NCBI GenBank assembly: GCA_964556365.1
Contig: CAZKVT010000001.1
Span: forward strand, 7,158 to 71,157
Direction: 5' to 3'
Source of the DNA: an uncultured bacterium
GTDB lineage: Bacteria > Hydrothermota > UBA3072
DNA: 64,000 bases
The notes under the pieces are model-generated. The model had not been told where the DNA came from and ran no database searches. It saw only the letters and a program-made list of their open reading frames with translations. Both the position numbers and the translations under genes were made by a program. Shown here in pieces: positions 1 to 50,735 of this stretch (positions within the stretch are counted from its first letter, which is position 1; each line of letters starts with the position of its first letter).

Positions 1-536
1 TTGTAATTACCAAAGGAAACTTAATACTCAGGGATAAAAAGTTCTTTAAAGCAGAAAATACTTTCGCGGCAATTTCTCTCAATACTCTGGACGATAATAG
101 CGTCAAAATGTTGGAACCAGATGTACCTTCGATTACTAAAAGGAAAAAGGTTATCGAAGAATTAGTTAATACCGGGGTAAGAACCGTAGTCAAGATAGAC
201 CCGATTATACCGGGAATTACTGACGGAGAAAGACTTTGGGATCTTGCAAACTGGTTGTGCAAATTGAAACCTACAGCTGTTACAGCAGAAACTTTACGGA
301 TTAATAAAAAAATAAAAAACGATATAAAAGAAGTTTTACCTGAAAAATTATTTGAAAATTTCCTTTCAAAATACCAGGGAATTACGGAAGAACCTCAACA
401 CCCTAACCTTGAATACCGGTTATCTTTATTTAAGAATCTGGCAAAGCTTTTTCAAGAAAATGGAGTTAAAGCATCTTTTTGTAAAGCTTCACTGCCATAT
501 CATATAACACCTTTCGATTGCCGCGGAGGGTTTTAA
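1..536 (+). CDS. radical SAM superfamily protein, C-terminal portion (SplB/COG1533-like); 5' end outside window
   Basis: The frame of tracked ORF 108..536 stays open back to nt 3 (VITKGNLILRDKKFF...), so the gene is cut by the window edge. The pattern ISLNTLDD..LEP....VVKIDPIIPGITD recalls the barrel half of SPL-type radical SAM enzymes. Its TAA is directly followed by the ATG of the next radical SAM gene. Confidence 0.5.
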   Translation, partial: VITKGNLILRDKKFFKAENTFAAISLNTLDDNSVKMLEPDVPSITKRKKVIEELVNTGVRTVVKIDPIIPGITDGERLWDLANWLCKLKPTAVTAETLRINKKIKNDIKEVLPEKLFENFLSKYQGITEEPQHPNLEYRLSLFKNLAKLFQENGVKASFCKASLPYHITPFDCRGGF

Positions 537-1499
537 ATGGTTTCCAGTTTATATTTGATGCCTACTCAGAAATGTAACAGTGAATGTGTCTACTGTTATA
601 TCCCTGACCAGAAAAGCCAAAAAGAAGGTGACGATGAATTTTTCTATAAGGTAGTGGATAAATTTACAAATGATTTAAAAGATAAAAATATAAATCCGCA
701 ACTGAGGTTTACAGGAGGAGAACCTTATTTAAAAATCGATTTAATAATTAAACTGATAAAAAAATTTACAATATCTTTTCCAAAAGCTATGGTGGTTATA
801 AATACAAATGGCACCTTAATTGACTCCGAAACAATCAAAGATACTCTACCATACAAAAAAAATCTAATTCATATTACTTCTTTAGACGGCTGCGAAGAAA
901 TAAACAATAAAAGAAGATTGCTAAAAGATTCATCTAACTCTTTTGAAAAAGTCGTTAGTAGTATTAAACTACTAAAAGAGAACGGTTTCCTCATTTACAT
1001 AAATATGGTTCTCGATACTCAAACTCTGGACGGATTCGAAGATTTTATAAAATATATTAAGCATTCTCTAAAATTACAAAATTTATCGGTTTCTTTACTT
1101 CACCAGAGCAAAATGAGAAAAGAAGAAAAATTTGACATGCTGCGGAAAGTTTATAAAATTTCAAATAAATACAACATTAAAATTGGAGGACACCATCGTC
1201 TACTGTTAGGCATGAGAATTCCAGAATTGAAGTGTCACGCCGGCGATAAAACCATTCTTGTAACCAGTGACCAAAAATTGGCAGCTTGTCAGCGATTCAT
1301 CGGGAATGGTTTTGAAAATCAACCTTGTAATTCAAATGTTGATTTTAGCTCTATAAAATCAACATATTCCCCGGAAGATTGCTGTTATTCAAAAGATAAT
1401 ATCTGGCTCGGTGACATGTTATTTGAAATGTATCAGGAGAAATATCCGGAATATTTAAGGGTTAGACCATTAGATAAGATTTTGTTTGGGGTTATATAG
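537..1499 (+). CDS. radical SAM enzyme with Cys-rich C-terminal (SPASM/twitch-like) region
   Basis: CNSECVYC (CxxxCxxC) lies near the N-terminus, with an FTGGEPYL SAM-binding GGE motif. Additional Cys residues lie near the C-terminus (KCHAG, ACQRF, PCNS, DCCYS). Confidence 0.8.
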   Translation: MVSSLYLMPTQKCNSECVYCYIPDQKSQKEGDDEFFYKVVDKFTNDLKDKNINPQLRFTGGEPYLKIDLIIKLIKKFTISFPKAMVVINTNGTLIDSETIKDTLPYKKNLIHITSLDGCEEINNKRRLLKDSSNSFEKVVSSIKLLKENGFLIYINMVLDTQTLDGFEDFIKYIKHSLKLQNLSVSLLHQSKMRKEEKFDMLRKVYKISNKYNIKIGGHHRLLLGMRIPELKCHAGDKTILVTSDQKLAACQRFIGNGFENQPCNSNVDFSSIKSTYSPEDCCYSKDNIWLGDMLFEMYQEKYPEYLRVRPLDKILFGVI

Positions 1500-48186: not shown

Positions 48187-48256
48187 TTTTACAAATCAAC
48201 AGGACAGGTGTTCGAATTCCAACCGGCAAGACCGCCGAGAGCTACTTTCAAATTAT
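48187..48256. repeat. right copy of the 70-nt direct repeat (3' end of the intact MBL-rhodanese gene)
   Basis: It matches 36122-36191 in the same orientation with 5 mismatches. It is immediately preceded by an 8-bp perfect inverted repeat, AAGAATAT (48160-48167) / ATATTCTT (48181-48188). Confidence 0.8.
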
Positions 48257-49550
48257 CCCACCCTTCTTTCTTAAGAAGACTGGCTGCCATCATTGAACGA
48301 AGACCACTTCCGCAAAAAATACAAACAGGTTTTTCTTTCGGCACTTCATCCATTCTTTCGTAAAGTCGAGTAACAGGAATATTTAAAGCATCGGGTATTT
48401 TACCTTTTTCTTTTATTTCCTCTTCACTCCTGACATCGAGAATTACAATCTCCTCTCCCTTATCCAGCAAACGGCATAAATCCTGAATTTTTAAAGTTCC
48501 TATCGACGCGCTTTCTTTACCTGAAGTATTCCAGCTAAACATTCCACCGGAAAGATAACCTGTAATATTATCATAACCTATTCTTATCAATAATTTCATA
48601 ACAGACAAAGGGTCATCTGTTTTATTAACAAGAAGTATCCTCTTATCATAAGGCAGAAACCAACCGGCAAAATTAGGAATTCCTCCTTGCCATATAAAAA
48701 TAGAACCGGGGATATGAGAACCTGCAAAACTCGACTCCATCCGGGAATCGAGAACAACCGCATCCTCTTTTTCCTTTGAAAATTCATCCGGAGAAAGAGG
48801 AACAGGCACCGGTAGGGAACCCAATATAGGAGCGCCCTCGACATTTAATTTTTCCATCTGCTTAAAATAAAAAGGCCTTTCTAATTCTTTTGATATATTA
48901 TTAATAAAATCTTTTTTTTCAGTAAACTGCAGCTTCGAATTTAACTTTTTCTCGAGCCCAATAGTAGTCCACGGTCTATCCGCGATTTCTCCCCCGCATA
49001 CAGAACCGGCACCGTGAGCCGGGCAAACAATAACCCCATCACCGAGCGAAAAGAATTTATGGAAAATAGTATCGTAAAGCATATCCGCCATTTCTTTCAT
49101 ATTATTTTTACCAAACAAATCGACTCTTCCGACATCACCCGCAAAAAGAGCGTCCCCCGTAAAAAGAATCCAGGGAGAACCGCTGACGTCAAAAAGAAGA
49201 TAACTCATACTGCCTTTGGTGTGACCCGGAGAAAAAATTGCCTCGATTTTATAAGAACCTACCTTCCATTCCTGCCCGTCATTTACCTCATAACCGTACT
49301 TATAATCTAACCCCGTATCGGCATGAAAAATTTCCGCGCCGGTTACCTCAGAAAGTTCTCTCGAACCTACAACATAATCCTCGTTACGATGAGTTTCAAA
49401 AATATATTTAATATTATAACCCTTACGGGAAGCTAAAAACAGATAAACGTCGATGTCCCGCCGGGGATCGACTACAAACGCTTCTTTATTATGCCCCAAA
49501 ATATAAGAATTGTGAGCTAAACCTTCCGATTCGACTTTTTCGAAAAGCAA
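48189..49550 (-). CDS. MBL-fold hydrolase/persulfide-dioxygenase-like domain fused to two rhodanese domains
   Basis: The MBL region has ETHRNEDYV in place of HxHxDH, plus SPGHTKGS, FTGDALF and CPAHG. The first rhodanese-like domain lacks an active Cys. The second has the active-site loop CIFCGSGLRS. Confidence 0.75.
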   Translation of the reverse strand: MLFEKVESEGLAHNSYILGHNKEAFVVDPRRDIDVYLFLASRKGYNIKYIFETHRNEDYVVGSRELSEVTGAEIFHADTGLDYKYGYEVNDGQEWKVGSYKIEAIFSPGHTKGSMSYLLFDVSGSPWILFTGDALFAGDVGRVDLFGKNNMKEMADMLYDTIFHKFFSLGDGVIVCPAHGAGSVCGGEIADRPWTTIGLEKKLNSKLQFTEKKDFINNISKELERPFYFKQMEKLNVEGAPILGSLPVPVPLSPDEFSKEKEDAVVLDSRMESSFAGSHIPGSIFIWQGGIPNFAGWFLPYDKRILLVNKTDDPLSVMKLLIRIGYDNITGYLSGGMFSWNTSGKESASIGTLKIQDLCRLLDKGEEIVILDVRSEEEIKEKGKIPDALNIPVTRLYERMDEVPKEKPVCIFCGSGLRSMMAASLLKKEGWDNLKVALGGLAGWNSNTCPVDL

Positions 49551-49581: not shown

Positions 49582-49764
49582 CTACTCGGCAACCTCTTCA
49601 GCCTTAAAAGAAAAATAATTCCTTTCTTTGAACTCCTCCCTTTTTCCTTCATTCCAGTTGTTAACAGGCCTATAATAACCTACAACTCTCGAATAAACCT
49701 CAGCCCTAACCGCGATGATTTTCTCCTTAGAAACTTCCTTCCTTTCAGCAATAGTCTCTTCCAT
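49582..49764 (-). CDS. stand-alone 60-aa protein homologous to the C-terminal glycyl-radical segment of class III ribonucleotide reductase (NrdD)
   Basis: VYSRVVGYYRPVNNWNEGKREEFKERNYF matches the NrdD C-terminal signature (Y)SR(I/V)xGY(Y/L)xxVxxWNxGKxxExxxR. The strong SD AAGGAGGG lies 6 nt upstream. No Zn-ribbon cysteines and no catalytic barrel are present. Confidence 0.65.
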   Translation of the reverse strand: MEETIAERKEVSKEKIIAVRAEVYSRVVGYYRPVNNWNEGKREEFKERNYFSFKAEEVAE

Positions 49765-49783
49765 TAAAAAACCCTCCTTAATT

Positions 49784-50653
49784 TTACCGTGGATTTTTAC
49801 CGGTTACCGTTGGGTTATCAGGATAAGAAGACCACTCAGTAAAAGAACCTTCATAAATCCTTACATTCTGATACCTAAGTAAAAATTTAAACATAATAAA
49901 TTCATTTGTTGCTTCTCTGCCCGTACCGCAGGAACAAATTACGGTTTTATCCGGGTTTATACCTTTTTCATCTAAAATACCCTTAATCTCATCTTCATCT
50001 TTTAAAAGAGTTGGATTATCTTCAGCCATTAAACTTTTCCATGGAAGATTTATCGCCCCGGGTATATGTCCGGGTTTGGGCCAGGGTCCCTGCCCCTCAT
50101 AAACATTTGCCGGTCTCGCGTCGAGTAAAATAACCCCTTCATCATCTTTAACCCTCTTAAAATCCTCATAATTAAGCAAATAATCTTTTCTTACATTAAC
50201 CTCAAAATCTGACTCCGTAACAACGGGAAATTCTTTAGTAAGCTTTCGCCCTTCCTTTTTCCAATTATTCAGACCGCCATCCAGAACATAAACCCTGTTA
50301 TGTCCAAATCTCACGAGAGAATAAGCCACCATCGTCTGCTCAAGACCATCACCCCAACCTCTAACTCCACCAACACCTGTATAAACCACAACCGGATAAT
50401 CGCCTATAAGCCCAACTCTCCCGAAAAGCAATTCCGCGACTTTCCCAGACACGTAAACACCGGGCATACCCTTATAAGATACCCTCAATAAATTCGGATT
50501 GAAATAAATAGCACCTGGAATATGCTCAAGTATATAATCATGTATATCAGGCTGAACATCAAGAATAGAAAATTTACCGCCTAAATTCTCCTCAAGCCAC
50601 GAAGCATGAGTCCATTTTAAACCCCCACCGCCTAAAGGATACTCTTTTTCCAT
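49784..50653 (-). CDS. tandem-rhodanese sulfurtransferase (thiosulfate/3-mercaptopyruvate sulfurtransferase-like)
   Basis: There are two rhodanese domains. The C-terminal one carries the active-site loop VICSCGTGREAT, and HIPGAINLPW is also present. The SD GGAGG lies upstream. Confidence 0.75.
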   Translation of the reverse strand: MEKEYPLGGGGLKWTHASWLEENLGGKFSILDVQPDIHDYILEHIPGAIYFNPNLLRVSYKGMPGVYVSGKVAELLFGRVGLIGDYPVVVYTGVGGVRGWGDGLEQTMVAYSLVRFGHNRVYVLDGGLNNWKKEGRKLTKEFPVVTESDFEVNVRKDYLLNYEDFKRVKDDEGVILLDARPANVYEGQGPWPKPGHIPGAINLPWKSLMAEDNPTLLKDEDEIKGILDEKGINPDKTVICSCGTGREATNEFIMFKFLLRYQNVRIYEGSFTEWSSYPDNPTVTGKNPR

Positions 50654-50707
50654 ATCACCTCCTCTACTGTACCCGTTCCAAAAATGTAACTATTACAAAC
50701 TAAACTT

Positions 50708-50735
50708 ATATTACAAACTTTTTCTTAAATGTCAA
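50708..50735 (-). promoter_or_regulatory. sigma70-type promoter (TTGACA-16-TAATAT on minus strand) for the rhodanese operon
   Basis: The minus-strand sequence is cccTTGACAtttaagaaaaagtttgTAATAT. The -35 is at 50730-50735 and the -10 at 50708-50713. Confidence 0.5.

Follow-up and report, generated by a model that had tools for sequence, protein, structure and literature searches.

A gene of 60 codons in the analysed DNA, a 64,000-nucleotide stretch of a genome of the candidate division WOR-3 lineage (hereafter the window), is a conserved extra copy of a gene for a radical-glycine protein. It probably encodes a functional duplicate of the detachable subunit that carries the glycyl radical in a two-piece class III ribonucleotide reductase (RNR), and would give the large NrdD body (NrdD-L) and the activase NrdG an alternative, separately regulated supply of that subunit.

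The open reading frame (ORF), here called NrdD-S2, occupies positions 49582..49764 of the minus strand including its stop codon, starts with ATG at 49764-49762, and translates as MEETIAERKEVSKEKIIAVRAEVYSRVVGYYRPVNNWNEGKREEFKERNYFSFKAEEVAE. Its Shine-Dalgarno (SD) sequence, AAGGAGGG (49772..49779, minus strand), lies 7 nt before the ATG and 5 nt past the stop of the upstream rhodanese gene, and the same SD is found in every orthologue of the ORF. An initial annotation of this DNA had described a 60-aa ORF with a strong SD, placed between two rhodanese genes, that corresponds to a stand-alone NrdD C-terminus with its radical glycine and lacks both the zinc-ribbon cysteines and the catalytic barrel; each part of that description held.

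Against NrdD C-termini the ORF was significant in four profiles. The Pfam model PF13597 (NRDD) matched with E 3.6e-9 and 36.3 bits (gathering score 26.2), pairing residues 21-51 with model positions 533-562 of 562, and the NCBIfam models NF006358, TIGR02487, and NF006126 matched only through their last ~30 positions (E 5.7e-10 to 1.8e-7; positions 650-683 of 684 for NF006126). This match is far beyond chance. A leader of ~19 aa precedes the core, which carries the radical-glycine motif SRVVGYY at about residues 24-31, with S24, R25, V26, V27, G28, and Y29 invariant in a 42-sequence alignment and Gly28 as the radical glycine. Zinc-ribbon cysteines and a catalytic barrel were not found in the ORF, and PF01228, the Gly_radical family of pyruvate formate-lyase (PFL) type, matched neither the ORF, for which the Pfam scan gave NRDD alone, nor anything else in the assembly.

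Oxygen destroys glycyl-radical enzymes by cleavage at the radical glycine, and the GrcA/YfiD protein of PFL is the only known remedy. GrcA/YfiD of E. coli and Y06I of phage T4 are autonomous glycyl-radical cofactors for PFL. A review of June 2026 knows spare parts only for formate lyases and regards those of other glycyl-radical enzymes as yet to be determined (PMC13450708), as an earlier review from 2021 likewise does (PMC8683613). The initial annotation was right that no characterized NrdD equivalent of GrcA is known, and none was found in the literature. One reading of the window ORF is a strict spare part of this kind, which would take the place of the C-terminus that a full-length NrdD loses when oxygen cuts the chain at its radical glycine. 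Like YfiD, the ORF is a free-standing glycyl-radical module preceded by a leader at its N-terminus, and both reviews raise the possibility for other glycyl-radical enzymes. The nrdD genes of this genome and its relatives nonetheless make this reading very improbable.

The assembly (1.85 Mb in 47 contigs, completeness 78.6%) was searched in full and yielded one nrdD, on contig C20; the window ORF lies on contig C1. The product of this gene, NrdD-L, has 704 aa, stops at a TAG after the zinc site CPVHGYISGEHFFCPYPH and a tail of ~48 residues, and contains no RVxGY motif, and its 1003-bit match to NF006126 covers model positions 5-662 of 684. The missing end is encoded separately: 15 bases past the nrdD-L stop, behind AAGGAG, a TTG codon opens a 57-aa ORF, LVENIEEKSLEREKVYAVRAEVYSRVVGYYRPVQDWNEGKREEFKERKYLKTEDSNN, that matches positions 650-683 of the same model. 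The activase gene adjoins it (TIGR02495, NrdG2; 188.7 bits against a cut-off of 131.15), so that the order on C20 is nrdD-L / 57-aa glycyl-radical ORF / nrdG. Where the initial annotation had looked to a full-length nrdD with its nrdG elsewhere in the genome, nrdG is indeed present, but nrdD occurs only as the split body and the 57-aa ORF. No full-length NrdD was found in this genome (78.6% complete) or in other genomes of the genus, and the assembly, at the same completeness, yielded no class I or class II RNR and no PFL-type glycyl-radical enzyme, which leaves NrdD-L as the sole candidate partner found.

These results tell against the GrcA-like rescue of an oxygen-cleaved full-length NrdD that the initial annotation had suggested, since the only NrdD found is split and its body ends before the glycine domain. 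All copies in the other genomes of the genus likewise sit in frames of 57-80 aa, the ORF has no homology to PF01228, and the sampled genomes with a fused NrdD carry no extra copy. With the only NrdD found in the genome split and the small subunit a regular part of it, the window ORF is instead a second paralogue of that regular small subunit.

The split was traced through a sample of 61 related genomes. The radical motif lies in a short frame in all 15 genomes of the genus, this one included, with 57-80 aa for every copy in the 14 others, and in short frames in several other families of the phylum, for an overall range of 55-98 aa. Other families have the motif inside frames of 691-714 aa, which represent fused NrdD. 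An NrdD body without a glycine domain of its own is conserved in all genomes of the genus, and extra copies of the tip outside the nrd cluster were found only in genomes with a split NrdD and in none with a fused one. Stop-codon read-through of nrdD was considered and rejected: the large and small ORFs are out of frame with each other in most split genomes and each small ORF comes with an SD and a start codon of its own, which also excludes a sequencing error.

Beyond this sample, only one of the 120 best homologues of NrdD-L in the database has the glycine domain; the other 119 share the zinc site CPxHG...CP[YFH]xH and an EELxxFG tail and include proteins of WOR-3, Fermentibacteria, Aminicenantes, and the cultured Thermodesulfatator indicus. 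A scan of GTDB contigs recovered the order nrdD-L / small ORF / nrdG in about 47 of the best 80 loci, and the same three-gene layout stands on contigs labelled Spirochaetes and others. The split of NrdD is real, old, and widespread; a literature search found no description of a split NrdD, nor of an NrdD spare part.

Split bodies differ from one-piece enzymes at their ends. The zinc site of NrdD-L is of the form C-x2-H...C-x3-H (CPVHG...CPYPH) and is followed by a conserved extra tail. Across the split-type bodies, CPVHG...CP[YFH]xH replaces the C-x2-C pairs and the tail reads EELxxFG...EG[SA]Y[RK]...LFLN (L001:3060-3255, P0120-P0239), and in one homologue, P0229, an ordinary glycine domain is joined to a split-type zinc site. 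The tail is a possible docking element for the free subunit. Its possible origin as a decayed glycine domain was examined for the NrdD-L form (EELEEFG...EGAYKRI...VFLNKAK) and rejected: MAFFT placed glycine domains onto the tail and phmmer paired EEFGQVVEL with RIVGYLVPV of Thermotoga maritima, but hhalign did not support the relation (probability 0.2%, 8 columns). Separately, eight split-type bodies reach 1000-1180 aa (P0204, P0209, P0217, P0225, P0231, P0233, P0235, and P0236). Homing-endonuclease domains (PF14528 with PF14890 or PF05204) occur in P0204, P0209, P0217, and P0233, and the other long bodies show the ATP-cone and NRDD alone; the long forms probably contain inteins inside NrdD-L.

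The relation between body and tip was also modelled with AlphaFold2 as a fusion in which the TAG was read through as G, using 66 homologues; alignments that contained the free peptides, which MAFFT misaligned, were set aside. The mean pLDDT was 75, but residues 383-402 of the finger loop and 737-767 of the glycine domain fell below 50, and at this low confidence in both elements the model lends no structural support to docking in trans.

The window ORF and the nrdD-adjacent copy are identical at 29 of 32 core residues, share the core AEVYSRVVGYYRPV..WNEGKREEFKER, and have acidic N-terminal leaders of the same kind. Codons differ at 17 of the 29 residues that the two have in common, so the duplication is not recent, and by this comparison the window ORF is a paralogue of the small subunit of the split NrdD. 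Twelve further species-level genomes of the genus have an orthologue of the window copy, for a total of 13 with this one, and a search confined to short proteins yielded 118 stand-alone relatives (38-101 aa), the 60-aa orthologue class among them. The two paralogues also differ. Of the primary copies in the genus, 12 of 14 start with TTG, and second copies start with ATG; each paralogue has its own conserved tails, the differences from the primary copy comprising a change of QD to xN after RPV and the acidic C-terminus EEVAE. A peptide tree, which rests on few columns and is prone to long-branch artefacts, sets the 60-aa class apart from the adjacent class.

Selection on the second copy is as strong as on the first. 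The median dN/dS (Nei-Gojobori) is 0.11 for the 13 orthologues of the window class and 0.125 for the nrdD-adjacent class, and the core of the window class has a pN of 0.055 against a pS of 0.645. That the ORF corresponds to only the 3′ tip of a large gene might suggest a decaying fragment left by a rearrangement of nrdD, and the initial annotation had allowed for a relic. Such an origin is refuted by an intact frame, an SD, the 12 orthologues elsewhere in the genus with synteny kept, and synonymous sites near saturation beside an almost unchanged core. The survey of conservation and dN/dS that the initial annotation had proposed thus speaks for a maintained gene.

The ORF is the middle gene of a three-gene unit on the minus strand with intergenic gaps of 19 and 31 nt. 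The first gene (49784..50653, minus strand) encodes a 289-aa tandem-rhodanese sulfurtransferase that resembles 3-mercaptopyruvate/thiosulfate sulfurtransferases, with PF00581 in two stretches (E 1.5e-28) and a match to NF008557 that falls below the cut-off (E 2.9e-33); it is syntenic with the small ORF in about 12 genomes of the genus. The third gene (48189..49550, minus strand) has a TTG start behind a GGGAGG SD and encodes a 453-aa fusion of a metallo-beta-lactamase (MBL) fold with two rhodanese domains (PF00753 and PF00581) that resembles persulfide dioxygenase/rhodanese proteins. Its best PDB matches are 3tp9 (E 1.4e-71) and 3r2u, both solved MBL-rhodanese fusions, followed by the persulfide dioxygenases 4ysb, 5ve3, and 4chl, and of 41 relatives only members of this genus were found to carry the gene. 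The first metal motif of this protein reads H-R-N-E-D-Y, as against HxHxDH in MBL and persulfide-dioxygenase proteins, and the His and Asp ligands further along are apparently retained; the altered motif makes persulfide-dioxygenase activity uncertain.

A sigma-70-type promoter precedes the unit at 50705..50735 (minus strand; CCCTTGACA, 16-17 nt, TAATATAAG; 10/12 in a consensus scan). Its -35 and -10 boxes are conserved in 10 aligned genomes, and the DNA further upstream cannot be aligned. The next strong promoter on the minus strand (48021-47993, 12/12) lies beyond the MBL-rhodanese gene, and with this spacing, the short gaps, and the promoter of the unit itself, the small ORF most likely shares a transcript with the sulfur genes. 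An alignment of 10 upstream regions revealed an operator-like element (50667..50698, minus strand) between the -10 box and the SD, comprising a 7-1-7 near-palindrome, TTGTAATAGTTACAT (50698-50684), and GGGTACAG (50674-50667); the 10 genomes share TTGTAATAGTTACAT and GGTTACAG. The element would most likely be a repressor-type site, and its palindrome resembles the 7-1-7 boxes of the Fur family. The genome contains two Fur-family genes, both unlinked to the unit, and no NrdR or clear Rrf2 regulator was found in it. A scan of the genome with a position weight matrix of the operator found only the window site scoring high, and Rfam gave nothing above noise on the operon. Elsewhere in the window, two adjacent radical-SAM-like ORFs occupy 3-1499 (+), of which the second (537-1499, +, 320 aa) is weakly similar to SPASM-type peptide maturases (PapB family, E 2e-23, below cut-off) and matched an NrdG model only through the common radical-SAM core.

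The nrd cluster on C20 lies behind another conserved promoter and a conserved leader of ~170 nt. Upstream of nrdD-L (L001:884-1140), the promoter CCCTTGACTTAT / 17 nt / TATTATAAGA is kept in 11 genomes of the genus, in which the leader is also highly conserved and holds a perfect hairpin, TTTTTTCGGTATTCGAAAAAA. Rfam returned nothing above noise for this leader, which may be an undescribed regulatory leader.

A separate promoter, together with tails unlike those of the primary copy, would also suit a regulator or decoy whose competition for NrdG or NrdD-L keeps these from the primary subunit and so damps dNTP synthesis when the sulfur operon is on. This is quite improbable, as a pure inhibitor would be expected to lose the radical glycine and the invariant core residues, and the window peptide keeps them all.

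Gene order around the second copy varies within the genus. The order rhodanese / small ORF / MBL-rhodanese is found in ten genomes, and in two the rhodanese and the small ORF occur without the MBL-rhodanese gene, one of these retaining the last 21 codons of that gene beside an intact small ORF. In one further genome the small ORF follows genes for an Rrf2 regulator, an HD protein, and a 4Fe-4S protein. In one congener the rhodanese and MBL-rhodanese genes are directly adjacent, with no small ORF between them, from which it follows that the operon works without it.

This variation bears on a role outside RNR, in which the peptide would work for the sulfurtransferase operon; it might be a radical or thiol partner of the rhodanese and the MBL-rhodanese, for instance, or accept sulfur from them. 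Tight operon linkage in about 12 genomes of the genus is in keeping with such a role, as is the C-x-C end (YLSCECEE) of many orthologues. The C-x-C is missing, however, from the window protein and four other orthologues, the invariant part of the peptide is exactly the NrdD radical loop, and the small ORF and the MBL-rhodanese gene are each found beside the rhodanese without the other. Rhodaneses are not known to have glycyl-radical chemistry, and the role is on balance improbable.

Another extra copy was found in congener G008, which lacks the rhodanese-type copy. On its contig C6 (L054:2506-2679), a 57-aa duplicate lies between MetY and NifS in an operon assigned by Pfam as Rrf2-MetY-NifS-NifU, and in the tree this duplicate groups with the adjacent class. 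The orthologous operon of congener G013 (L082) has a MetY-NifS gap of about 12-15 nt and no insert. Judged by position and grouping, the duplicate is independent of the window-type copy, and together the two indicate that extra copies entered sulfur-trafficking or Fe-S operons at least twice.

The two insertions also bear on whether the window copy is a plain redundant or dosage copy whose place in a sulfur operon is a historical accident without regulatory meaning. The near-identity of the two cores, the changing context within the genus (rhodanese operon, Rrf2-HD-FeS cluster, isc-like operon), and the absence of the window-type copy from one species all fit such an accident. Neutral redundancy should decay, yet dN/dS stays at 0.11 across 13 species; the small ORF has survived deletion of its MBL-rhodanese neighbour, both independent insertions lie in sulfur or Fe-S operons, and the paralogues keep distinct conserved tails, start codons, and SDs. 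The accidental copy is therefore unlikely, though it retains some plausibility.

Lone NrdD-type glycine-domain genes were also seen in phage-like contexts (L057:2020-2253, L058:2480-2863, and L063:5001-5213), as a 77-aa form whose neighbour on a contig of 3 kb is a PD-(D/E)XK nuclease, a 127-aa form that includes a Cys4 zinc ribbon, and a 70-aa form amid many small ORFs, an RNA ligase, and a homing endonuclease. An orphan gene of 58 aa (L061/L062:5001-5177) lies on an 884-kb metagenome contig among uncharacterized neighbours, with no nrdD or nrdG found within 5 kb.

In the preferred reading, the window copy as a second supply of the detachable subunit, the primary protein of ~57 aa, encoded between nrdD-L and nrdG, would supply the radical glycine to NrdD-L in trans. 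The NrdG2-type activase would take a hydrogen from Gly28 of the window peptide in the same way, and the activated peptide would dock on NrdD-L and hand its radical to the cysteine of the finger loop, which is the task of the fused C-terminus in one-piece NrdD. The window copy has the promoter and operator-like site of its unit, an ATG, and a strong SD, set against the TTG of the primary copy, and would therefore yield additional or replacement radical subunits whenever the sulfur operon is on. The inducing state may be sulfide or micro-oxic stress, conditions that destroy glycyl radicals; this coupling to stress, akin to the oxidative-stress regulon that the initial annotation had considered, may hold on the evidence of the gene neighbourhood.

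Compared with known systems, the window ORF shares with GrcA/YfiD and Y06I a small free-standing radical loop behind an N-terminal leader, encoded away from the parent enzyme, and like GrcA/YfiD it would presumably be activated by the activase of the parent and then act in trans. The differences are of family and of circumstance. GrcA/YfiD is of the PFL type (PF01228) with ~127 aa, and the window ORF, at 60 aa half that size, derives from the NrdD C-terminus (PF13597). GrcA/YfiD coexists with the full-length parent that it repairs, whereas the partner body here never had a glycine domain to lose, which would make the window ORF an alternative subunit and not a repair patch for a cleaved chain.

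One-piece class III RNRs (T. maritima, 4COI/4U3E; phage T4, 1H78; P. copri, 8P23) belong to the same family and have the same RVxGY loop, the activase here being of the NrdG2 type, and NrdD-L aligns with their structures up to the zinc site. Their radical domain is part of the same chain and follows a four-cysteine zinc site, in contrast to the separate, twice-encoded polypeptide and the CPVHG...CPYPH site with its tail described here. In analyses of the RNR family the radical domain of class III is C-terminal (PMC9669993). The small subunits encoded next to nrdD in WOR-3, Fermentibacteria, and other lineages are like the window copy in core, length class, leader pattern, and strong SD. The window copy departs from them in lying outside the nrd cluster, under the promoter of a sulfurtransferase operon, with ATG instead of TTG, with distinct tails, and in one genus only. 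A precedent for a C-terminal functional module as a separate gene product is the split class II RNR NrdJa/NrdJb (PMC9669993). That enzyme is of another class, its module is IscU-like or a zinc finger and not a radical carrier, and no second copy elsewhere has been described.

A broader proposal, offered tentatively as a possibility, is that the radical tip of class III RNR is a consumable, separately encoded part and the window gene its stress-time supply. Copies would have been placed independently, at least twice, in operons for sulfur trafficking and Fe-S assembly, so that fresh subunits are made alongside the proteins that repair sulfur and Fe-S cofactors after damage, the cluster of NrdG among them. 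The repeated insertion beside sulfurtransferase and Fe-S assembly genes points to a possible regulatory link.

A conserved extra tip copy in a sulfur-transfer operon can be put to the test as a candidate replaceable radical part beyond PFL, and the lineage offers a natural test, with an apparently sole RNR that would take its tip in trans and two tips under different promoters. If the tip is indeed a consumable part, class III RNR would become the first glycyl-radical enzyme besides PFL with a spare-part system. If the two tips are interchangeable or can be swapped, the picture of class III RNR, now that of one chain with a C-terminal radical domain, would change. Such a supply, if real, would also explain how strict anaerobes keep up DNA synthesis in sulfidic, intermittently oxic habitats.
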